Shown: positions 1-47,013 of the stretch, piece by piece
Layout of the letters: every line of letters begins with the position of its first letter
Position numbering within the stretch: the first letter of the stretch is position 1
Assembly (NCBI GenBank): GCA_023460995.1
Contig: JAEWOE010000001.1
Coordinates: forward strand, 10,664 to 74,663
Direction of reading: 5' to 3'
Length of the DNA: 64,000 nt
Origin: Bacillota bacterium
GTDB taxonomy: Bacteria > Bacillota_I > Bacilli_A > RF39 > UBA660
The notes under the pieces: generated by a model
What the model was told of the DNA's origin: nothing
Databases searched by the model: none
The model's input: the letters and a program-made list of their open reading frames with translations, nothing else
Made by a program: the position numbers and the translations under genes

Positions 1-1
1 A

Positions 2-1180
2 AAGGAATTTTATTACTCATTTAAATATAGTTTAACTAGTGATAGTTTGAAATCTGTTGAAAGTGGAATGGTTATATATCGAACATTAGAAGCTAGTGTA
101 TCTAGTGACTCTAAGCTAGCTGGTGATAATAATGAAAGTTATTTTTCGATAATAGGTACTAATACAAGCGATATAAAGGAAGTAAATAACGGGACTTTTA
201 GTATTATAGATGGTGATTTATATACGGATAAAGATATTGATAATGGTAACAATGTTATTTTAATTTCTAAAGAACTTGCTCAGGAAAATGGATTAAAAGT
301 TGGAGATAGTATTAATTTACGCCGAAAGGTTGAAACATATACTGAAACAGAAACAAAATCTTTAGGTACAGTTACAAAGGAATATAAGATTGTTGGTATT
401 TTTGAGGCTAAATTAAATAAAATTACTGATAATGATGGAAAAGTAATAGATGAGTCTAATCCACTTGCTAACAGTATCTATATGCCTAATAATACAGTTA
501 AAATAGTACATGATGAAGTTGTTGGTTTGCTTAAGAAGTACAATGCTAATGAATATGATGATTTCAATATAAGTGCCTCATTTTATTTAAATAGTATTGG
601 TGATATAGAAAATTTTAATAATGATAATTTAAAGTTATTACCTACTGGATATAAATTTACTGATAATAGTAATCTTTATAGTAGTACTTTAGCACCTATT
701 TCTAGTATGGGAGGTATATCAAATTTTATTATGTATGCTGCTTTAATAGCGTCAATTATAATAATAGGTCTAATCTCTTTATTATTTTTTAGAGAAAGAA
801 GACATGAGATGGGTATTTACTTAGCTCTTGGTGAGCATAAGATTAATATTGCTATGCAAATACTAATTGAAACTTTAATTATATCTTTACTTGCAGTATT
901 TATTTCGATATTTACTGGTAATATGGTTGCTAAAAATATTTCTAATAATATGTTAGAAGACCAAATAGAAAATAAAGCAAGTAATGATGACTATTATTAT
1001 GATGAGTTTGGATATCAATTAAATTATAGTAAAGATGAGCTATTAGATAAATATAATGTCAAATTAGATGTTACTACTATTATTTTAATTTTTCTAATTA
1101 GTATAGGAAGTATTACTGTTTCAACTTTAATACCTATTTACTATACTTTAAAGATTAATCCTAAGAAAATACTTATGTAA
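2..1180 (+). CDS. ABC transporter permease, FtsX/MacB family (5' end cut by window edge)
   Basis: Reading frame is open back to base 2 with no stop. C-terminal FtsX-like TM bundle (FRERRHEMGIYLALGE...). Clear paralogue of the full-length permease at 20988..22523 (shared VISEELAEENDLKVGD / EIVGIYE blocks). Confidence 0.75.
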   Translation, partial: KEFYYSFKYSLTSDSLKSVESGMVIYRTLEASVSSDSKLAGDNNESYFSIIGTNTSDIKEVNNGTFSIIDGDLYTDKDIDNGNNVILISKELAQENGLKVGDSINLRRKVETYTETETKSLGTVTKEYKIVGIFEAKLNKITDNDGKVIDESNPLANSIYMPNNTVKIVHDEVVGLLKKYNANEYDDFNISASFYLNSIGDIENFNNDNLKLLPTGYKFTDNSNLYSSTLAPISSMGGISNFIMYAALIASIIIIGLISLLFFRERRHEMGIYLALGEHKINIAMQILIETLIISLLAVFISIFTGNMVAKNISNNMLEDQIENKASNDDYYYDEFGYQLNYSKDELLDKYNVKLDVTTIILIFLISIGSITVSTLIPIYYTLKINPKKILM

Positions 1181-1191
1181 GGAGAATTAGT

Positions 1192-1869
1192 ATGGAAAAT
1201 ATATTAAGCGTTAGTAATTTAAGTTACTATTATCAAGATGGTGATACTATAAGACATATTTTGAAAGATATAAATTTAAATTTTGATAAAGGTAAATTTT
1301 ATACCATATTAGGTGAAAGTGGCAGTGGTAAAACTACATTTCTTTCTCTAATATCTGCTTTAGAAGAGCAAAAACAAGGTAAAATTAAATATGATGGAAC
1401 TGATATTAGACAAATTGGTTTAGATAACTTTAGAAGAAATAAGATTGGTATTATATTTCAAAGTTATAATTTAATTCCTTATATGACTGCTTTAGAGAAC
1501 GTTTTAACAGCGATGTATATAACAGACAATAAAATACCAGGTAATTACAAAACAGTAGCTCTAAACCTATTAAAATACGTTGGAATAGATAATGATAAAG
1601 CCACAAGAGTTGTTAATAAACTTTCTGGTGGTGAACAACAAAGAGTTGCAATAGCAAGATCACTTTCTACAGATGTAGATATCATTCTAGCGGATGAACC
1701 AACAGGTAACTTAGATGAACAAATGTCAGATGAAATAGTTAAATTATTTTCTTCGTTAGCTCATGATCATAATAAATGTATTATTATGGTTACCCATTCT
1801 AAAGAAATAGCAGAAAAGTCTGATATGGTTTTAAGACTATATAAAGGTGTATTAAAAGAAAATGAGTAG
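1192..1869 (+). CDS. ABC transporter ATP-binding protein (MacB-type ATPase)
   Basis: Walker A GESGSGKTT, ABC signature LSGGEQQRVAIARSL, Walker B ILADEPTGNLD. 8-nt overlap with the next gene. Paralogue of 20320..20982. Confidence 0.85.
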   Translation: MENILSVSNLSYYYQDGDTIRHILKDINLNFDKGKFYTILGESGSGKTTFLSLISALEEQKQGKIKYDGTDIRQIGLDNFRRNKIGIIFQSYNLIPYMTALENVLTAMYITDNKIPGNYKTVALNLLKYVGIDNDKATRVVNKLSGGEQQRVAIARSLSTDVDIILADEPTGNLDEQMSDEIVKLFSSLAHDHNKCIIMVTHSKEIAEKSDMVLRLYKGVLKENE

Positions 1870-3094
1870 TTTTTTAGACAACTTCACAGAAGAAGAAAAA
1901 CAAGATAGTAATGGGATAAAAACAACTGAATATGAAGTAGATATAGATAAAAAGTATAAAAGTAAAAAGACTAAAAGATTAGTCATTGAAGTACTAGTTA
2001 TAGTATTTATTAGTATTTGTATAATATTTACTATAATTTATATGTCTAAAGTAGAGGTACCAAACTTTAATAATCAGTTAGTATCCATTGCAGATAAATG
2101 GGGTTCTAACAACGATATAGATATAGTAAAAAGCGAAGAATATAGTGATGAATTTTTAGAAGGATATATTATAAGTCAAAGTGTAGAAAATGGTACCAGA
2201 ATATCTAAAAAAAATAATTTAAAACTTGTTGTTAGTAAAGGACCAGATCCTGAGGAAGTAATTAAAGTACCTGACTTCAGTACTATGACAGGAGCTGAAA
2301 TTAAAAATTGGGTTAATGAAAATAAATTAAGTAATACTACTATTACAGAAAAAAACTCTACTCTAATAGAAGCCGGCAAATTAATTAGTTATACATTTGA
2401 AAGTGTTATTGTAGACAAAGAAAATTTTAGAAGAAGCGATGTTTTAAATATCATCATTTCTAAAGGTAACACCACATATGAAAAAGATATAGAAGTAATA
2501 AATTTAGTATCTAAAACAAAAGAAGAAGTTTCTAAGTGGTGTACAGATAATAATTTAATATGTAATTATGCAGAAGTGCTTTCGGAAACTTATGAAAGTG
2601 GTAAAATTGTGTCTCAGTCAGTAAAAGCCATGGAAACTATTTCAAAAGATCAAATACTTAATTTTGAAGTATCTGTAGGAAAAGGGATAATAGTACCTAA
2701 TTATTCAAATGTCACTAGTGAAAACGCAAGCAGTATAAATACAAAGTTTGATATTAAATTAAAATATGTATATAATATGGTTACTAGTTATGGAAAACTG
2801 ATATCGCAAAGTGTTAAAGCAGGTAGTAAAAGATTAGAAACAGATAATAAAATAGAACTAGTTTATTCACTAGGAAGACCATATTTTAGCAATCTAGTAG
2901 GAACAAGCGTTAGTGAAGTAGCAAAAATATTTTATGATTATAATCAAAAAGGAGTTAACTTTACTTATGAAATACTTTATGTTAACAGTGATAAAGAAAA
3001 AGGAAGTATAATTGAAACTTCTAAATCAAATGAATTTGTTACAACAAGCGAAAACATTATAATTAAAGTTAGTAACGGAGTAGTAGGTGATTAA
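1862..3094 (+). CDS. single-pass membrane protein with about 5 tandem PASTA-like domains, no kinase or PBP domain
   Basis: Short charged N-terminus, one TM (LVIEVLVIVFISICIIFTIIY), then a repeated block G(K/Y)(L/I)ISQSV..G..ISK...L.L.VSKG recurring about 5 times (PASTA hallmark 'G.VISQSP.AG..V..GS.V.L.VSKG'). Start overlaps the ATPase stop; ends 2 nt before the sigma gene. Confidence 0.55.
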   Translation: MSSFLDNFTEEEKQDSNGIKTTEYEVDIDKKYKSKKTKRLVIEVLVIVFISICIIFTIIYMSKVEVPNFNNQLVSIADKWGSNNDIDIVKSEEYSDEFLEGYIISQSVENGTRISKKNNLKLVVSKGPDPEEVIKVPDFSTMTGAEIKNWVNENKLSNTTITEKNSTLIEAGKLISYTFESVIVDKENFRRSDVLNIIISKGNTTYEKDIEVINLVSKTKEEVSKWCTDNNLICNYAEVLSETYESGKIVSQSVKAMETISKDQILNFEVSVGKGIIVPNYSNVTSENASSINTKFDIKLKYVYNMVTSYGKLISQSVKAGSKRLETDNKIELVYSLGRPYFSNLVGTSVSEVAKIFYDYNQKGVNFTYEILYVNSDKEKGSIIETSKSNEFVTTSENIIIKVSNGVVGD

Positions 3095-3096
3095 TA

Positions 3097-3882
3097 ATGA
3101 GAATAAAACTAAATACAATTTTTGAGTTGCTTAGAAACTATGATACTTATGGTTTTGAACTACTTTACGAAAATTATTTTAGATTAATGTATGGTGTTGC
3201 TTTTTCTATTAGTAAGAACGATGAAACGAGTAAAGACGCAATTCAAAATACCATGTTTAATTTATACAAACTTGACTGTAATAAGTTTCCTACCAATAAT
3301 GAATTAAGCTGGCTTTACAAAGTAGTAAAAAATGAAACATTACAGCTTCTTAGAAAAGAAAAGGCAAAAATATCTATTGATGATATTGCGGAATTACCTG
3401 ATCTTAACAACGATATTAATTTAGTTGTAGATATGGATTCTTATGAACAGTTAGTTATGCAACTAAATGATCGGCAAAGAAAAATAGTAACTTTAAAAAT
3501 TGTCAGTGGTTTAACTCATAAAGAAATATCAGAAATGTTAGATATTCCTCTAGGTACAGTAATGTGGAGTTATAATACATCAATAAGGAAACTTAGACTT
3601 GTTCTTAGTGGATTAACTTCTGTGTTCTTATTAAGCTTAGGAACCGTCTTATATAGGTTATTTGATGCAAAAACAAAGGTAAGTCCATTAATAAGTGAAT
3701 CATATACTACTCTAGAATATTATCCATCTAGTAAAGTAGGTGGAAGTACAGAAATCGTAAGTAATTTTAATATAGATATAGTTTTATATATAATTATGAT
3801 TGGTATGCTAATTTCATTTATATTATTATTTATCAAATCTGATAAAATTCCTAACAGAACTCTTTACAAAAGAAATAGATAA
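3097..3882 (+). CDS. RNA polymerase sigma-70 family (ECF-like) factor with C-terminal membrane anchor (2 predicted TM helices)
   Basis: Region 2-like block (YENYFRLMYGVAFSISKNDETSKDAIQNTMFNLYK) and canonical region 4 HTH (LNDRQRKIVTLKIVSGLTHKEISEMLDIPLGTVMWSYNTSIRKLR), followed by hydrophobic helices LTSVFLLSLGTVLYRLF and IVLYIIMIGMLISFILLFI. RBS GTAGGTGA 6 nt upstream of the ATG. Confidence 0.6.
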   Translation: MRIKLNTIFELLRNYDTYGFELLYENYFRLMYGVAFSISKNDETSKDAIQNTMFNLYKLDCNKFPTNNELSWLYKVVKNETLQLLRKEKAKISIDDIAELPDLNNDINLVVDMDSYEQLVMQLNDRQRKIVTLKIVSGLTHKEISEMLDIPLGTVMWSYNTSIRKLRLVLSGLTSVFLLSLGTVLYRLFDAKTKVSPLISESYTTLEYYPSSKVGGSTEIVSNFNIDIVLYIIMIGMLISFILLFIKSDKIPNRTLYKRNR

Positions 3883-3978
3883 GCATTATTATTAAAATAC
3901 ATAATATGAACGGTAGTAGGTTAGGGGACTTTACTTAAATTAAAACATATTGTTATTTTTGATTTAAGTAGATATTTT

Positions 3979-3999
3979 AAGACTTTATAAGTCTTTTTT
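3979..3999 (+). terminator. weak rho-independent terminator after the sigma-factor operon
   Basis: Inverted repeat aagact-ttata-agtctt followed by TTTT. Confidence 0.35.
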
Positions 4000-4076
4000 G
4001 TTATCATGATACAAAAAGTATTTACAAAAAAAATTTATAAATATATAATTAATATTATTAATGGGGGAAAAATATA

Positions 4077-4630
4077 ATGAGTTTTAACACAGAAATAGCT
4101 GAAGAAATATCAAAAATGCAAGAAGATGCATTATTTATTATTGATAATGAGATAGTAGAAATTTATTATAAGTTTATTTCTTATATTCCTGAAAAATGGA
4201 ATATATCTAAGATACTTCAAAAAAGTTCAGTAGATTTATCGGTACAAGAAATAGATATTTTAAAACAAATAAAAATTGATAATAATAATAGTGAAGTGTT
4301 TTTAGAATATTTAAAAAATATTTTGATAAAAATTCAATAGAAGATTTAGCTAAACTAAAATTAACGGATGAGGAATATAATCTTTGTATTAACAATATAA
4401 AAAAATATTGTATTTTTCCAACTGAAGAGTTAAATGTTATAGTAAACGATTTAAGTAAAAAAAATTGCAATGATAGATCTATATTAGAAGAATTTATATT
4501 ACATGAGCTAAGATCAATATTATTTGCTAGAAATATAAAAAAATTATCTAATGATATTGATACTAAAACAGAAAAAAACTTTCAGATGCGTTATAAAAGT
4601 TCTATATATGTTCAAAAAAACAGTATTTAA
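4077..4630 (+). pseudogene. hypothetical gene split by a frameshift at an A6 tract (4313-4318); possible pseudogene or phase-off state
   Basis: ORF 4077..4340 stops at TAG; the +2 frame is open from 4295 to about 4630 (…YFDKNSIEDLAKLKLTDEEYNL…VQKNSI). One extra A in AAAAAA at 4313-4318 would fuse both into an approximately 185-aa protein (EYLKKYFDKNS…). Confidence 0.35.
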
Positions 4631-7510: not shown

Positions 7511-8425
7511 TTATTCCTCCCTACTATGCGGATGTGATTCATCATAGTTTTTTCTTAACTTTTCTGTCGCAACGTGTGTATATATACCTGTCGTTGATAA
7601 ATTAGAGTGTCCAAGCATTTCTTGAATACTTCTTAAATCAGCTCCATTATCAAGTAAATGTGAAGCAAAAGAATGTCTTAATGTATGAGGTGATAATTCT
7701 TTATTAATATCCTTTTCTTTTACTAAAGCTTTTAATATTTTAAAAAAGCCTTGCCTCGTCATCCCTAACCCATGATTATTTAAAAACAATTTATCGCACA
7801 CTCTGTTTTTTAGCATACTGATTCTGTATTCTTCTATATATGTTTTAACCGAATCACGAGCATAATCTCCAATAGGTATAATTCTCTCTTTATTTCCTTT
7901 ACCTATAGTTCTTACTATATCACTATCTAGATTAATATCATTTATATTTAAGTTTATTAATTCACTAACTCTAAGACCTGATCCATACATAAGTTCAAGC
8001 ATTGCCTTATTTCTGGCTGAAAAACTATCAACTATTTTAATATCTAATAGGCTGTCTATTTCATCTAAGGATAGAACATTAGGTAAAGATTTAGTTATCT
8101 TAGGCAGTTCTATTTTATCCATTGGATTGTAATTCATTCTACCAGTTATATTCATGTATTTATAAAAAGTTTTTAAGGATGATATATTTCTAGCAATAGT
8201 TTTATTGTTTATTTTTTTAATATCTAAATATTTTAAGTAATCGAAAACATTGTCATCAGTTATTTTTTCTGGTTTTATTTTTAAATATAATAGAAACTTT
8301 TTAATATCTTCAATATAAGATAATTTAGTGTTATCACTATATTTTCTATCAATTAATAAATAAATAGAAAAATCATCAAGAATAGGTTTTATTTCTTTAT
8401 AAAATTCTTTTTCAACCACTTGCAT
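7511..8425 (-). CDS. xerD: site-specific tyrosine recombinase XerD
   Basis: C-terminal catalytic region RHSFASHLLDNGADLRSIQEMLGHSNLSTTGIYTHV (R..H..R..Y motifs). Size 304 aa. Sits upstream of deoB. Confidence 0.8.
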   Translation of the reverse strand: MQVVEKEFYKEIKPILDDFSIYLLIDRKYSDNTKLSYIEDIKKFLLYLKIKPEKITDDNVFDYLKYLDIKKINNKTIARNISSLKTFYKYMNITGRMNYNPMDKIELPKITKSLPNVLSLDEIDSLLDIKIVDSFSARNKAMLELMYGSGLRVSELINLNINDINLDSDIVRTIGKGNKERIIPIGDYARDSVKTYIEEYRISMLKNRVCDKLFLNNHGLGMTRQGFFKILKALVKEKDINKELSPHTLRHSFASHLLDNGADLRSIQEMLGHSNLSTTGIYTHVATEKLRKNYDESHPHSREE

Positions 8426-8884: not shown

Positions 8885-10288
8885 ATGAATAAATATGATG
8901 CTATAATTGTTGGTGCTGGTCCTTCAGGGATATTTTGTGCCTATGAACTAATTAATAAGAATCCTAAAATGAATATTTTAATATTAGAAAAAGGACATGA
9001 AGTATCTAAAAGGATCTGCCCCAAAAGAAAAACAGGTAAGTGTGTCAACTGTAATCCTTGTAATATAACATGTGGTTTTTCAGGAGCTGGAGCTTTTAGT
9101 GACGGCAAACTTACACTAGCTAAACAAGAAACTGGTGGTAATTTATCTGAACTTATTGGACCTGATAAAACGGAAGAATTAATAAAGAAAATAGACGATA
9201 TTTATTTAAGTTTTGGAGCTGATACTAAACTACATGGTGTAGATAATAAAGAAGCTATTGCGACTATCAGAAAAAAAGCTATACAAGCTGATTTAAAACT
9301 TATTGAAAGCCCTATTAGACATTTAGGCACTGAGGCAAGTTATGAAATATATGGTAAATTAGAGAAGTTCTTAATTAAGCATGGTGTAACTATTATGTTT
9401 GATACAATGGTAGTAGATATTATTGAAGACAGTGGCACTATAAAAGGTATAGCTACAAAAAAGGATGAATTTTACTCTGATGTAGTAGTAGTTGGTTCTG
9501 GAAGAGAAGGATCTGCTTGGTTTCAAGAAATATGTAAGAAGCACCATATTGAGTCAGTACCGGGAACTGTAGATATTGGCGTTAGAGTTGAATGCCGCGA
9601 TGAAATAATGAAAGAATTAAATGATGCAATGTATGAATCAAAACTAGTTTACTATACTAAAACATTCAGTGATAAAGTTCGTACTTTTTGTCAAAATCCT
9701 TCTGGTGAAGTAGCACTCGAAAACTATACTCTTTCAAGTGGTAAACACTTAACTACGGTTAATGGCCATGCCTACAAAGGAGACAGTCTAAAAACAGAAA
9801 ATACTAACTTTGCTATCTTAGTATCTAAAAACTTTACTGAGCCATTTAAAGAACCTTTAGAATATGGTGTTGCTATCGCTTCACTTGCCAATATGCTTGC
9901 TGGTGGTGGTGTATTAGTGCAAAGTTATGGTGATTTTAAAAAACACCGCAGAAGTACTCCAGAACGTATTAGATCAGGTAATGTTGTTCCAACTTTGAAA
10001 GATGCTGTTCCAGGTGATTTATCAGCTGTTATCCCATATCGTATTTTTGAAGATATAATTGAAATGCTTGAAGCTATGGATAAAATAGTTCCAGGTATAG
10101 CAAATAACGAAACACTTTTATATGGAGTTGAGGTTAAATTTTACTCTAATAAAGTTATAATTGGCAAAGATTGCCAAACTAATATAAAAGGTTTATATAG
10201 TGTTGGTGATTCATCATCTTGGACTAGAGGGTTATCACTTGCTTCAGCTATGGGATTATATGCAGCTGATAATATTCTTAATATTTAA
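8885..10288 (+). CDS. FAD-dependent oxidoreductase (COG2509-like NAD(FAD)-utilising dehydrogenase)
   Basis: N-terminal Rossmann YDAIIVGAGPSGIFCA. Start at the ATG 8885, which has RBS GAGAGGA upstream (the track start 8861 is a TTG). Confidence 0.7.
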   Translation: MNKYDAIIVGAGPSGIFCAYELINKNPKMNILILEKGHEVSKRICPKRKTGKCVNCNPCNITCGFSGAGAFSDGKLTLAKQETGGNLSELIGPDKTEELIKKIDDIYLSFGADTKLHGVDNKEAIATIRKKAIQADLKLIESPIRHLGTEASYEIYGKLEKFLIKHGVTIMFDTMVVDIIEDSGTIKGIATKKDEFYSDVVVVGSGREGSAWFQEICKKHHIESVPGTVDIGVRVECRDEIMKELNDAMYESKLVYYTKTFSDKVRTFCQNPSGEVALENYTLSSGKHLTTVNGHAYKGDSLKTENTNFAILVSKNFTEPFKEPLEYGVAIASLANMLAGGGVLVQSYGDFKKHRRSTPERIRSGNVVPTLKDAVPGDLSAVIPYRIFEDIIEMLEAMDKIVPGIANNETLLYGVEVKFYSNKVIIGKDCQTNIKGLYSVGDSSSWTRGLSLASAMGLYAADNILNI

Positions 10289-36129: not shown

Positions 36130-36206
36130 TGGTAACTCGTATGGGTTTCGAACCCATGGATACCGCCTTGAGAGGGCGGCGTGTTGAACCCCTTCACCAA
36201 CGAGTC
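36130..36206 (-). tRNA. tRNA-Glu (anticodon CUC by manual fold)
   Basis: Minus-strand cloverleaf: acceptor GACTCGT/ACGAGTT, 3-bp D stem (typical of tRNA-Glu), anticodon stem CCGCC/GGCGG with loop CUCUCAA, T-arm ATGGG-TTCGAAA-CCCAT, encoded CCA. Confidence 0.6.
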
Positions 36207-38770: not shown

Positions 38771-40267
38771 TCATTTTTTGATCCCTATTAATTCATTTTT
38801 TAAATTATTACAACTTAAAAACTGATGGCCAAATTGTATTAAGTTCGGCAAATATATCACACTTATTGAATTGTTGTAACTTAAGAAATTATCACCCACT
38901 TGTATTAGTGATGGTAAGTATAACGATGTTAGTGATTTATTCCCAGATAAGAATTCGTTTCCTGCTTCTTTTAGAGAAGGCAAGTTTATTTCTGTTAATT
39001 GATTATTTGAAGATAAGAAACCACTTCCTACTTGCTTTAACAATGGTAATTCTAATGTTATTAATGATTCGTTTTGAGTAAAGAAATAGTCTCCTACTTC
39101 CACTAGTGATGGCAAGTTTACTGATGTTAGTGATTCGTTTTGAAACAAAAAATAATTTCCTGCTTCCTTTAACATAGGCAGGTTTAAATCTGTCATTAAA
39201 ACGTTATTATATAAGAAAAAATCATCTGTTCGATTTAATTTATCATTCTTGTACCCTATAATATTATTATTTTTATCAATGATAACTTCTATAACATTAA
39301 TTTCTTCGCCCTTCTTCGTTTCAATATATATTACTTTATTGTTATTCTCTTTTTTTATAACGTTTATTTTAGAAATGTTTTTAAAATCATCTATAAAGCA
39401 GTCTTTTAAAGTTGAATCGTAAAGTAGTATTTTTTTATTGGTAATATCTAATATAAAATAATCAATAATAAGATATTTTGAACTATCAAGATAATCTTTC
39501 TTAACTACAAAGTTATCTATAATTATATTACCAGGGCAATAATAAATATTGTTTATTTCATAATTATATTTATGAAACTTTCCGTCATTAGCCCTAACAT
39601 ACCCTTTAATTTCAAAGAAATGTCGGTTAGGAATAAAATTAAACTTATAGTGTCTTCTGAAACTACTAGATAAACCTGACTTTATATTATCTAAATTGTT
39701 ATTAAAAGTACTGTCACAATTATCTACTCTGTGGTTATACCTATTTTTAATTGACAGCGTATTAACATTGCCACGCGTAAATTGAATACTTATTACAGAA
39801 GTACCATATTCATCTTGTCTTTGTGGCTTACTAAAGCTTTCTCTGTTTAATTCAAAAGCATTCTTTTTTACTGCAAAAAAAACATGGCATCGATCTAATC
39901 TATTTCCTTTAAATGTACATAATTCTTCTTCTGGTTTATAGTACTTTTTAAAGGTTTGTATTTCCTCTTCATTATGACACTCATAAAGAATATATCCAGC
40001 TTCTTCTAATAATTCCTGTGGCGTTTTTTCTTCAATACTTTCTATTGGGTCTTCTTCAGTTGCAATAGTATAAATATATTCCTTAAACTCAGGTATTAAT
40101 CCAAATTTACATATATCATAATATAAATCTCTTGATTGATAAAAATTTGTACTCAAAGCCCAGTATAATAACTGTGGTTCTTCAAGCAATGTCGGAAATA
40201 ATTGTTGGCATAAATGCATCATTTTTTCTCCGTAAAATTTTTTTATCATCTTTAAGTCATCAAACAT
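38771..40267 (-). CDS. leucine-rich-repeat protein (N-terminal unknown domain + about 6 C-terminal 22-aa LRRs, BspA/LRR_5-like); no signal peptide
   Basis: Repeats LPxLxxxGxxFLxxNxSLTxLx (e.g. LPSLVEVGDYFFTQNESLITLE). Full-length copy carrying a T8 tract in the codons for CHVFFAVKK. Confidence 0.6.
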   Translation of the reverse strand: MFDDLKMIKKFYGEKMMHLCQQLFPTLLEEPQLLYWALSTNFYQSRDLYYDICKFGLIPEFKEYIYTIATEEDPIESIEEKTPQELLEEAGYILYECHNEEEIQTFKKYYKPEEELCTFKGNRLDRCHVFFAVKKNAFELNRESFSKPQRQDEYGTSVISIQFTRGNVNTLSIKNRYNHRVDNCDSTFNNNLDNIKSGLSSSFRRHYKFNFIPNRHFFEIKGYVRANDGKFHKYNYEINNIYYCPGNIIIDNFVVKKDYLDSSKYLIIDYFILDITNKKILLYDSTLKDCFIDDFKNISKINVIKKENNNKVIYIETKKGEEINVIEVIIDKNNNIIGYKNDKLNRTDDFFLYNNVLMTDLNLPMLKEAGNYFLFQNESLTSVNLPSLVEVGDYFFTQNESLITLELPLLKQVGSGFLSSNNQLTEINLPSLKEAGNEFLSGNKSLTSLYLPSLIQVGDNFLSYNNSISVIYLPNLIQFGHQFLSCNNLKNELIGIKK

Positions 40268-42560: not shown

Positions 42561-42637
42561 TGGTAGCGACGGAGAGATTCGAACTCACGACCTACCGGGT
42601 ATGAACCGGTTGCTCTAGCCAACTGAGCTACATCGCC
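42561..42637 (-). tRNA. tRNA-Met (CAU anticodon, elongator-type; Ile2-lysidine not excluded)
   Basis: GGCGATG-TA-GCTC-AGTTGGCTA-GAGC-A-ACCGG-TTCATAC-CCGGT-AGGTC-GTGAG-TTCGAAT-CTCTC-CGTCGCT-A-CCA. Strongly resembles Bacillus elongator tRNA-Met. Confidence 0.65.
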
Positions 42638-46324: not shown

Positions 46325-46352
46325 AAAAAAAGGACAAAACTGTCCTGATTTT
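46325..46352 (-). terminator. rho-independent terminator (minus-strand T7 run)
   Basis: aggaca-aaac-tgtcct hairpin flanked by A7 (plus) / T7 (minus). Confidence 0.45.
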
Positions 46353-47013
46353 TCTGTTGAAATCGATGGCCATAAAACAGTAAACTTTGCGTCTTAGGTC
46401 AAGTTGTATTTCACCAGTTTCTCCATACACGTTACCATGTATGTGGTTCCCCTTTAAAGAAACCGATACGGCGTCGCCTATCCGTACGACTTGATTACCA
46501 CTTAGTACGCACTGCAATCCTGTTATATGAGACACTCTAGGAGATTTCCCCACCAACTGATTCATTATTAATTCTTTTTTGCAAATACAGTTTCAGATTG
46601 CGATTTTCAAATTAGTCTAGCTAAAACTAATTCAAAATGGATCAATCATTCCAAGTAATTCACTCAAGACAAGCTACACTACTCGTAACTTTCGCCACAT
46701 AGTAGGTTTAATCCTAATTCGTAGTAAGTCAGCTCAATATGCAATATATGTATATGCTTACCACAAGTATAGGTCTCCACGAATACAGGGTCATGAGCGC
46801 ATGCCATTGCGGATGCCCAATATTCTATCCTTCAGCATCCACCCCAAACTGGGCGTAAGAAGCAAACACCAAAGGCTTCACAGATATGCTCTTTAATGGT
46901 TTTTTAATCCCATCTTCATAATAAATCTCATTGACTAGAATAATGTGCCAATCAAAATTTACAAGATTAATTCTATCATATTATATGCATGATGTCAAAT
47001 TGCAATGACTACA
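46353..47013. other. GC-rich (about 45% vs about 27% background) non-coding island, 660 bp; candidate structured ncRNA or foreign DNA remnant
   Basis: No ORF longer than 82 codons in any frame. Composition sharply different from the flanks. Lies between the polysaccharide deacetylase gene stop and the 46325 terminator. Confidence 0.3.

Follow-up and report, generated by a model that had tools for sequence, protein, structure and literature searches.

A four-gene Bacillota operon joins a PASTA-bearing MacB-type ABC module to a predicted membrane-tethered ECF-type sigma factor

The window analysed here is a stretch of 64,000 nucleotides from a Bacillota bacterium (GenBank assembly GCA_023460995.1, contig JAEWOE010000001.1), and its left end (positions 1-3882, + strand, in DNA of ~26% G+C) holds four co-directional open reading frames (ORFs). 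They encode an ATP-binding cassette (ABC) permease of the MacB/FtsX type, an ABC ATPase, a single-pass membrane protein with five PASTA units and no kinase domain, and a sigma factor of the extracytoplasmic-function (ECF) type that ends in a hairpin of two transmembrane (TM) helices; we refer to the last as sigma-2TM and to the other three as the triad. Judged from the locus and its relatives, the operon joins two modules that are separable in evolution, sigma-2TM and the triad, and would be transcribed from a promoter that is characteristic of the sigma-2TM family. We propose this architecture and its regulatory wiring with high confidence. The full mechanism, in which a tethered sigma factor would be released and induce an envelope-defence ABC machine with a PASTA subunit that binds the wall or lipid II, we regard as evenly poised between right and wrong. 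The features of the operon and its 3' end are as follows.

1..1180, + strand: MacB/FtsX-type ABC permease, C-terminal 392 codons, open at the left window edge (Pfam FtsX and MacB_PCD)
1192..1869, + strand: ABC ATPase of 225 residues, MacB/LolD/DevA-like (Pfam ABC_tran, 6e-34)
1862..3094, + strand: kinase-less single-pass five-PASTA protein of 410 residues (ORF, Pfam, NCBIfam, AlphaFold model, Foldseek)
3097..3882, + strand: ECF-type sigma factor with a C-terminal TM hairpin, 261 residues (ORF, Pfam, NCBIfam, SigW alignment, AlphaFold model)
3932-3970, + strand: long hairpin of nearly all A-U pairs, ahead of the terminator-like hairpin (sequence inspection)
3979..4000, + strand: terminator-like hairpin AAGACTT-TAT-AAGTCTT with a T-run (sequence inspection)

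The ATG of the PASTA gene lies within the last codons of the ATPase gene, giving an 8-nt overlap (ATGAGTAG), and the junction of the PASTA and sigma genes reads TAA-TA-ATG, with the sigma start two bases past the PASTA stop. A ribosome-binding site of the GGAG/AGGTG type precedes each start codon. An earlier reading made from the sequence alone had described four tightly packed genes with overlapping or abutting starts and stops (1869/1862 and 3094/3097), and both the packing and these coordinates are confirmed; its domain calls for the permease, ATPase, PASTA protein and sigma factor all correspond to Pfam matches above the gathering scores. Permease codons 1-88 and the operon promoter are missing from the window, and the 5' part of the permease gene was recovered from a Logan contig with an identical locus (L001; related loci are likewise cited by number). 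Because the genes overlap and a conserved, family-specific promoter stands upstream of the first of them, we read the four genes as one operon. The same reading had placed a terminator at its end. A hairpin with a T-run is indeed present at 3979-4000, but the signal is weak: a consensus terminator scan called neither hairpin 3' of the sigma gene, the AT-rich one having fewer than three G-C pairs, and the folding z-score of the region is only -1.4. Two relatives (L003 and L012) likewise have a hairpin and T-run directly 3' of the sigma stop codon, and a terminator after the sigma gene is plausible.

The regulatory wiring is suggested by a promoter-like motif. The sigma alignment was scanned against one genome per species and loci were retrieved by sigma-core peptide patterns, which gave 37 Bacillota loci. 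The motif, CCAAYAAA-N15-CATCYAA, has 47 exact matches in 30 fetched loci, all on the strand of the sigma gene and at two fixed positions only: 25-60 nt before a start codon (P1) and within the last 30 nt of the sigma ORF (P2). Its length is constant at 30 nt while the sequence of the spacer varies, and it consists of an A-rich upstream tract, a -35 element with AAC and a -10 element with CATC; the consensus of 43 instances is AnAAAATnCCAACAAAA-N11-AnGCATCTAAA. ECF promoters are recognized by an AAC-bearing -35 element together with a -10 element that resembles C(G/A)TC, and what is observed here is a conserved, correctly placed CCAACAAAA-N14-GCATCTAA. The finding is not circular, since the loci were fetched by sigma-core peptides and not by the tail in which P2 lies. 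We infer that the motif is the promoter of sigma-2TM itself, and the operon looks auto-regulated.

P1 generally precedes the sigma gene; in the clade of the window it precedes the permease gene instead. It is found there in L001 (6572-6601, 40 nt before the ATG), L002, L003, L012, L087, L092 and L094, and with one mismatch in L091; for the window itself P1 falls outside, ~300 nt 5' of position 1. The position of P1 upstream of the permease gene is the strongest evidence for a single transcription unit under a promoter of the sigma family. Within the 64-kb window the exact motif has no match (0.01 expected by chance). Further regulon members in the window were sought and rejected: the single match with two mismatches, at 39412, equals the chance expectation.

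P2 was visible initially as a conserved C-terminal tail of the sigma protein, SDK(I/L)PTK...RI in the protein alignment. At the DNA level, CCA-ACA-AAA encodes P-T-K and ATC-TAA encodes I-stop, the TAA of the motif usually being the stop codon. Across ~30 genes with G+C contents of 0.26-0.52 the codons of the motif are frozen, whereas the invariant core residues (WLYxVVKNE, TLK) vary synonymously, and in L021, L024, L031, L033, L034 and L006 the motif persists in another frame or past the stop codon. As synonymous sites are invariant and the motif survives frame shifts and stops, the constraint is on the DNA and not on the peptide. A role of the C-terminal peptide as a regulatory or degron motif was accordingly considered and largely rejected: besides the frozen synonymous sites and the frame changes, the tail is disordered in the model. 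P2 copies occur in L004-L029 (for example, L004 8724-8753), and most sigma genes of the family thus appear, from their sequences, to be bracketed by two promoter copies, one for sigma and one for the following (+1) gene. Where the relatives carry the exact CCAACAAAA-N14-GCATCTAA, positions 3850-3882 of the window have CCTAACAGA...AATAGATAA, and the motif is not matched there even when two mismatches are allowed. This looks like a decayed P2; in the window clade P2 seems to have decayed and is followed by the putative terminator.

The sigma protein itself is laid out as follows.

3109..3597, + strand: sigma-2 (residues 5-85), linker with a low predicted local distance difference test score (pLDDT; residues 93-106) and sigma-4 (residues 107-167) (Pfam, NCBIfam, SigW alignment, model)
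3598..3654, + strand: TM1, residues 168-186, extending the sigma-4 recognition helix with zero linker (Kyte-Doolittle 1.9; model helix)
3655..3777, + strand: extracytoplasmic loop, approximately residues 187-227, poorly conserved (low pLDDT at residues 195-224; variable in the alignment)
3778..3834, + strand: TM2, residues 228-246 (Kyte-Doolittle 3.04; model helix at residues 226-249)
3835..3882, + strand: basic cytoplasmic tail KSDKIPNRTLYKRNR and stop codon (six K/R in the tail)

Pfam finds Sigma70_r2 (5.7e-7, 29.7 bits against a threshold of 24) and Sigma70_r4_2 (7.2e-11, 42 against 25.7) in sigma-2TM and no r3 match that would represent sigma-3, and the NCBIfam sigma70-ECF model scores 62.4 bits (cut-off 42.9). 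The protein aligns to the structures of SigW, SigH and SigE over residues 19-172, and to SigW (PDB entry 5wuq) up to residue 166. It thus has the sigma-2 plus sigma-4 composition of an ECF (group 4) factor. In the AlphaFold model (pLDDT ~70) one continuous helix, residues 152-194, covers both the recognition helix (residues 152-167) and TM1. With two TM helices and a tail bearing six K/R, both ends of the protein are predicted to be cytoplasmic (N-in/C-in). The membrane anchoring by two C-terminal helices proposed from the sequence agrees with this: both hydrophobic segments are helical in the model, and by hydropathy they are predicted TM helices. Fusions of sigma and anti-sigma factors (IutY/ECF243, ECF52-type) have an anti-sigma or zinc-finger domain before the TM segment, and sigma-2TM has none; the SigW alignment stops at residue 166 and TM1 begins at residue 168, leaving no room for one. 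Nor does the operon contain the adjacent anti-sigma gene of a canonical ECF module. The main text of the ECF classification 2.0 (Casas-Pastor 2021) does not mention a Firmicutes group with a two-TM extension; the sigma-2TM family may already be numbered in that classification.

A profile search of 1.84 billion cluster representatives returned 214 clusters (50% identity) of the sigma-2TM family at E<=1e-30, mostly from Clostridia. Among the best 150 clusters, 116 have exactly two predicted TM segments after sigma-4, separated by a loop of 1 to 219 residues (median 64). The order permease-ATPase-PASTA-sigma is far more restricted: among the 37 Bacillota loci it occurs only in L002 (sigma 92% identical), L003 (55%) and L012 (61%). 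The metagenome loci L087 and L091-L093 share it, although L093 starts inside the ATPase gene so that the permease is unseen, and the PASTA-sigma junction is present in L117. The order therefore recurs in at least nine loci, counting L117 and the window-identical L001, and in all members of the clade the PASTA-sigma gap is 2 nt or an overlap. Conservation of the gene order, which had been suggested as a check on the operon, is thus found by sequence comparison, in a narrow clade only. Other family members, with 37-48% identity, lack ABC and PASTA neighbours; they are carried by Acetobacterium, Anaerovoracaceae, Wukongibacter, Lacrimispora, Clostridium boliviensis, Hathewaya and many metagenome-assembled genomes (MAGs) of Clostridia. 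In these the +1 gene encodes a small secreted protein or lipoprotein of varied families, often DUF3221-like, and not an anti-sigma factor.

Some peculiarities of these loci may be recorded here. L003 (record CAYURI010000002.1) is labelled as an uncultured Muribaculaceae (Bacteroidota) MAG; the window-type operon is otherwise confined to Bacillota, and the contig is probably mis-binned. A pair formed by the sigma-2TM gene and a DUF3221-like lipoprotein gene is nearly identical across Acetobacterium, Anaerovoracaceae, Lacrimispora and Christensenellaceae, and in at least L004, L005 and L009 it stands immediately 3' of a tRNA gene (tRNA region ~7780-7900, upstream of sigma). Near-identity in unrelated taxa beside a tRNA gene suggests that the pair has spread horizontally, perhaps on an integrative element. 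One Anaerovoracaceae MAG has two sigma-2TM paralogues (L005 and L008) with near-identical promoters.

The PASTA protein is divided as follows.

1862..1981, + strand: cytoplasmic N-terminal tail, residues 1-40, with the motif MSSFL(D/E)xFxEE (alignment of homologues)
1982..2038, + strand: TM helix, residues 41-59 (Kyte-Doolittle 3.14; model helix at residues 30-61)
2048..3073, + strand: five PASTA units, residues 63-125, 133-200, 210-271, 276-336 and 340-404 (Pfam, AlphaFold secondary structure, Foldseek)

The Pfam PASTA model (PF03793) matches this protein in five stretches (6.8e-28, 96.9 bits against 23.2), and the AlphaFold model (pLDDT 83) shows five alpha/beta units that follow a disordered tail and a TM helix; within the tail, residues 1-25 are disordered apart from a short helix at residues 4-7. 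A single-pass protein with about five PASTA domains outside the cell had been called from the sequence, and the search with the PASTA model on 1862..3094 that had been proposed as a check bears this out. The closest fold in the PDB (Foldseek) is the ectodomain of Staphylococcus aureus PrkC (4e-13), followed by the PASTA domains of PknB and PBP2x; the matches to PrkC and PknB range from 4e-13 to 1e-11. The NCBIfam model PknB_PASTA_kin (NF033483, Stk1 family) aligns only at positions 311-500 of 563, which are its juxtamembrane, TM and PASTA parts, with 118.9 bits against a cut-off of 450. Pfam finds no Pkinase domain; the protein is truly kinase-less. The tail motif is kept in 23 of 23 aligned homologues, including those from loci without sigma-2TM, and represents a constraint on the protein, since only its first eight coding nucleotides overlap the ATPase gene. 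An anti-sigma function of the PASTA protein was ruled out, the 40-residue tail being equally conserved in loci without the sigma factor.

The full permease has 480 residues and starts 263 nt 5' of the window (L001 6642-8084). It matches Pfam FtsX (1.2e-12) and MacB_PCD (5.6e-9) and by hydropathy has four TM helices (residues 18-36, 331-349, 375-393 and 447-465) with an extracytoplasmic domain of ~295 residues. In a profile comparison with the PDB its nearest solved relatives are MacB (PDB entry 5lil, 8e-8), Spr0695 (PDB entry 5xu1) and YknZ, and the match to FtsX reaches only E = 0.32. The ATPase attains no NCBIfam equivalog cut-off; its best score, 190.3 bits against the cut-off of 254.85 for the lactococcin-972-type ABC (TIGR03608), is a lead only. 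Against the FtsE model it scores 171.5 bits (cut-off 264.85). The pair has the features of a MacB-type (type VII) ABC system, namely a four-TM permease, an FtsX C-terminal domain, a MacB-like outer core and an ABC ATPase. It does not have those of FtsEX: the FtsE score is under the cut-off, the PDB match to FtsX is weak and the outer domain is MacB_PCD.

That the triad is a module in its own right emerges from a search with the PASTA protein, which found hundreds of kinase-less homologues of 400-713 residues. In context look-ups and in a metagenome scan, every full-length PASTA homologue with upstream DNA available proved to be part of a triad in which its gene overlaps that of the ATPase. Shorter PASTA variants, aligned only from residue 58, occur in L098, L101, L102, L104 and L118, where no adjacent permease or ATPase gene was detected. 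The regulator that accompanies the triad differs between loci, as follows.

Window clade: sigma-2TM after the PASTA gene
Nine loci, before the triad, and L090, after the triad: a different 185-residue ECF factor and a 193-residue single-TM protein
L089 and L106: response regulator and histidine kinase before the triad
L082-84 and L095: divergent MerR gene
L085, L109, L110 and L112: no obvious regulator
L088, L099, L100, L103, L105, L108, L113, L119 and L090: promoter of the second ECF type upstream of the first gene

The 185-residue ECF factor and its single-TM neighbour are read as a canonical pair of ECF and anti-sigma factor. Operons with this second ECF type are headed by a conserved promoter unrelated to that of sigma-2TM, TTTGTAAG-N~15-CGTTAA(TATATATG). 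The sigma-2TM motif is absent from the operons of the second ECF type and from the other triad loci without sigma-2TM; control of sigma-free triads in trans was considered and rejected, the motif being upstream of none of those examined. Whichever regulator is next to it, the tail motif, TM helix and ectodomain of the PASTA protein are conserved. As the tail and TM helix are equally conserved in sigma-free loci, the PASTA gene is tied to the ATPase and permease genes and not to sigma; the PASTA protein is a component of the transporter and probably does not serve as a sensor for the sigma factor. Neither the operon nor any of the related triad loci examined has a gene for an HlyD-type membrane-fusion protein. 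Some triads have FemAB, polysaccharide-flippase and MurJ-like genes in their vicinity, and the histidine kinase of L089 has an outer domain of its own (160 residues). In one lineage, very abundant gut Clostridia whose PASTA protein is indexed in 412 contig-collection blocks (24 contigs were read), the permease gene is N-terminally short and in some assemblies split into two ORFs (L082, L084 4319-5311 and L095; compare L083), which may be ongoing pseudogenisation or an assembly error.

In the mechanism that we favour, sigma-2TM would be made as a membrane-anchored pro-protein and would be inactive while anchored, the membrane blocking access of the -35 DNA and of the RNA polymerase flap to sigma-4. 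Because the helix that recognizes the -35 element runs into TM1, the anchored protein should bind promoter and polymerase poorly. Envelope stress would bring about a first cleavage, within the short outer loop or close to it, and then a second one of TM1 inside the membrane, for which a RasP-like site-2 protease is the candidate. The freed sigma factor would read P1, ~40 nt 5' of the permease gene, and drive the permease, the ATPase, the PASTA protein and itself in positive feedback. The triad would act as a MacB-type, mechanotransmitting ABC machine with the PASTA protein as its third, stoichiometrically coupled subunit, the PASTA arm filling the place of a membrane-fusion protein (MacA, YknX) or of a hydrolase partner (PcsB, CwlO). 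ATP-driven movement of the outer domain, with the PASTA chain gripping peptidoglycan or lipid II, would then eliminate or counteract an insult to the wall; most likely, the triad would serve to protect or repair wall synthesis against a wall-active or lipid-II-binding antimicrobial. Pro-sigma-K is a precedent for the release of a sigma factor by proteolysis. For ECF factors fused to membrane-spanning regions, proteolytic release has been shown for IutY and predicted for ECF48, ECF52 and ECF53 (PMC8999054; PMC7826278).

Several points weigh against this mechanism. A factor other than sigma-2TM could conceivably bind the motif. In the known sigma-TM fusions with proteolytic release, an anti-sigma domain separates sigma-4 from the membrane, and sigma-2TM has none; the proposed steric inhibition at the membrane rests on a model with a pLDDT of ~70. 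Site-2 proteases usually take single-pass type II substrates, and here the second TM helix would have to be cut away beforehand or accommodated. The operon has no linked protease gene, and the ATPase, from which the substrate of the transporter might be read, lies under every NCBIfam equivalog cut-off, that of the lactococcin-972 ABC included. Finally, the conserved 2-nt coupling of the PASTA and sigma genes is equally predicted by a physical partnership of their products. The joint proposal of a new one-component sigma class (bare TM hairpin; a gene bracketed by its own promoter, with the second copy in the last ten codons and the stop) and a PASTA-armed type VII ABC machine that, in the manner of Bce transporters, reports its activity to the paired regulator, be it sigma-2TM, an ECF/anti-sigma pair or a two-component system, forming a portable module for sensing and resisting wall damage, is a tentative one, more apt to fail than to hold.

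A partnership of the PASTA protein and sigma is the core of an alternative in which the PASTA protein, by itself or jointly with the transporter, detects muropeptides, lipid II or transport activity and triggers release or activation of the sigma hairpin within the membrane. The PASTA and sigma genes are 2 nt apart or overlapping in all clade members, the triad stands repeatedly beside signalling proteins (an ECF factor with a single-TM partner in ten loci, a two-component system in two to three) much as Bce-type sensor transporters do, and the outer loop of the sigma factor is short and poorly conserved, with no obvious ligand-binding domain. However, most sigma-2TM members have no PASTA or ABC neighbour, so that the activation mechanism of the family cannot depend on either. 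The tail and TM helix of the PASTA protein carry no features specific to sigma loci, regulators of three unrelated architectures have been swapped on an unchanged triad, and the L089 kinase, with an outer domain of its own, is unlike the intramembrane-sensing kinases of Bce systems. We consider this alternative unlikely. It is in essence the model of the sequence-only reading, a pathway that senses wall fragments and in which sigma is released or activated; the specific idea that the PASTA protein does the sensing and thereby releases sigma finds no support, as the sigma family is nearly always independent of PASTA and ABC genes and the PASTA protein independent of sigma. The picture of a sigma-based analogue of BceAB-BceRS is apt insofar as an envelope ABC module is wired to a dedicated regulator, and lacks support for sensing from PASTA to sigma.

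Two further explanations concern one module each. Sigma-2TM could be active at the membrane, recruiting RNA polymerase so that exported proteins are transcribed, translated and inserted there; it would need no proteolysis and would be controlled by its amount or by the conformation of the hairpin. All of its predicted targets are exported or membrane proteins (the triad, and the +1 lipoproteins and secreted proteins), neither a protease nor an anti-sigma gene is linked, and membrane-bound one-component transcription factors exist (ToxR, CadC, BcrR). ToxR-like factors have flexible linkers, though, and with zero linker the DNA helix of sigma-4 would press the -35 DNA and the polymerase flap onto the bilayer, which makes this explanation improbable in our view. 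The triad, for its part, could be morphogenetic, using the PASTA arm to govern a wall hydrolase or synthase in the manner of FtsEX, with sigma only timing its expression. The mechanotransmission architecture is common to MacB and FtsX, FemAB, flippase and MurJ-like genes occur near some triads, and the PASTA domains of StkP and PBP2x direct proteins to sites of wall synthesis (PMC10434722). Against this, the permease has MacB_PCD and not an FtsX ectodomain, the FtsE and FtsX comparisons are poor (171 against 265 bits; E = 0.32 in the PDB) and no hydrolase gene is linked; stress-type regulators (ECF, two-component, MerR), a patchy distribution and apparent decay of the permease gene in an abundant gut lineage fit an accessory role better than a core one. 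A morphogenetic triad is thus improbable, and release of a tethered sigma factor that induces a defence machine remains our preferred reading.

Other features of the region lie outside these two modules. An 87-residue ORF at 4077-4340 (+ strand) has no Pfam match; L002, a close relative, has a 197-residue ORF (8970-9563) whose N-terminal part corresponds to it, and the window copy may be a truncated gene or a pseudogene. Some 430-1230 nt 5' of the window, L001 (5678-6472) encodes a 264-residue protein with a weak N-terminal helix-turn-helix match and no family assignment. It was ruled out as part of the system, being kept only in the closest relatives (L002 and L091); two terminator-like hairpins also split it off from the operon, and it is probably outside the transcription unit. 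Elsewhere in the window there are a full-length OLE (ornate large extremophilic) RNA at 46350-46967 (- strand; RF01071, 377.6 bits against a gathering score of 50) and tRNA genes at 42564-42637 and 36133-36206 (both - strand).

Several parts of this picture are already known: ECF factors fused to membrane-spanning regions, FtsX-type ABC modules controlled by ECF factors or two-component systems, and PASTA sensors. In the literature that we searched we found no MacB-type ABC system with a PASTA protein among its fixed subunits, no sigma factor that runs without a linker into a bare TM hairpin, no promoter inside the 3' end of a sigma gene and no fusion of the sigma-2TM and triad modules; searches on tethered sigma factors, on PASTA with ABC transporters and on kinase-less PASTA proteins returned nothing relevant. 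The gene combination, which the sequence-only reading did not recognise as a described module, is likewise absent from that literature. PASTA domains are familiar from Ser/Thr kinases, whose outer sensors they form, and from penicillin-binding proteins, to which they are appended, and a place as third subunit of a MacB-type ABC machine would, if true, be a third use. The triad would point to a new route of defence or repair of wall synthesis in Gram-positive bacteria, abundant gut Clostridia included. The sigma-2TM family offers a very simple, testable model of membrane-tethered sigma control without an anti-sigma domain, and its sharply defined promoter is a possible orthogonal switch for synthetic biology. 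P2 is also a caution for reading motifs from protein alignments: a conserved 'protein motif' that appears to be a DNA signal.

Among known systems, BceRS-BceAB resembles the operon in that an envelope ABC transporter with an FtsX domain is encoded beside a dedicated inducing regulator, and the triad variants with a two-component system (L089 and L106) resemble it further. The window locus has no two-component system in its context (L001), its permease has four TM helices and MacB_PCD in place of the ten TM helices and large TM7-TM8 loop of BceB, it adds a PASTA subunit, and its regulator would be a tethered sigma factor instead of an intramembrane-sensing kinase. YknXYZ (of the sigma-W regulon), Spr0693-0695 and MacAB share the four-TM permease with a large MacB-like outer domain, the separate ATPase and a third, single-pass partner, and yknWXYZ also shares ECF control. 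In contrast to YknXYZ and MacAB, the third subunit here is a five-PASTA chain and not an HlyD-type membrane-fusion protein, and the similarity of the permease to MacB is confined to the FtsX domain (E 8e-8).

The PASTA kinases (PrkC, Stk1, StkP, PknB and IreK) and PBP2x are, like the third subunit, single-pass proteins with an outer PASTA chain, and the best sequence match is to the juxtamembrane and PASTA parts of Stk1. The window protein differs from them in having neither a kinase nor a transpeptidase domain, in its 40-residue tail with its own motif and in a gene that is locked by overlap to that of an ABC ATPase. For the regulator, IutY/ECF243, SCO4117/ECF52, ECF48, ECF53 and ECF263 similarly unite sigma factor and TM segments in one polypeptide with no separate anti-sigma gene, and their activation by regulated proteolysis, shown for IutY, is predicted for the rest. 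Of these, ECF263 has five to seven TM helices and the others add an anti-sigma or zinc-finger domain with long sensory extensions, whereas the sigma-4 of the window protein is joined straight to a bare TM-loop-TM; the family belongs to Bacillota, and many of its members have a second promoter inside the gene. Pro-sigma-K, with SpoIVFB, and pro-sigma-E of Bacillus are Bacillota sigma factors made as inactive membrane-associated precursors and activated by a membrane protease, as is predicted for sigma-2TM. Theirs are short N-terminal pro-sequences on group-3 sporulation sigma factors, whereas sigma-2TM would be held by a C-terminal anchor of two TM helices on a factor of the ECF type.

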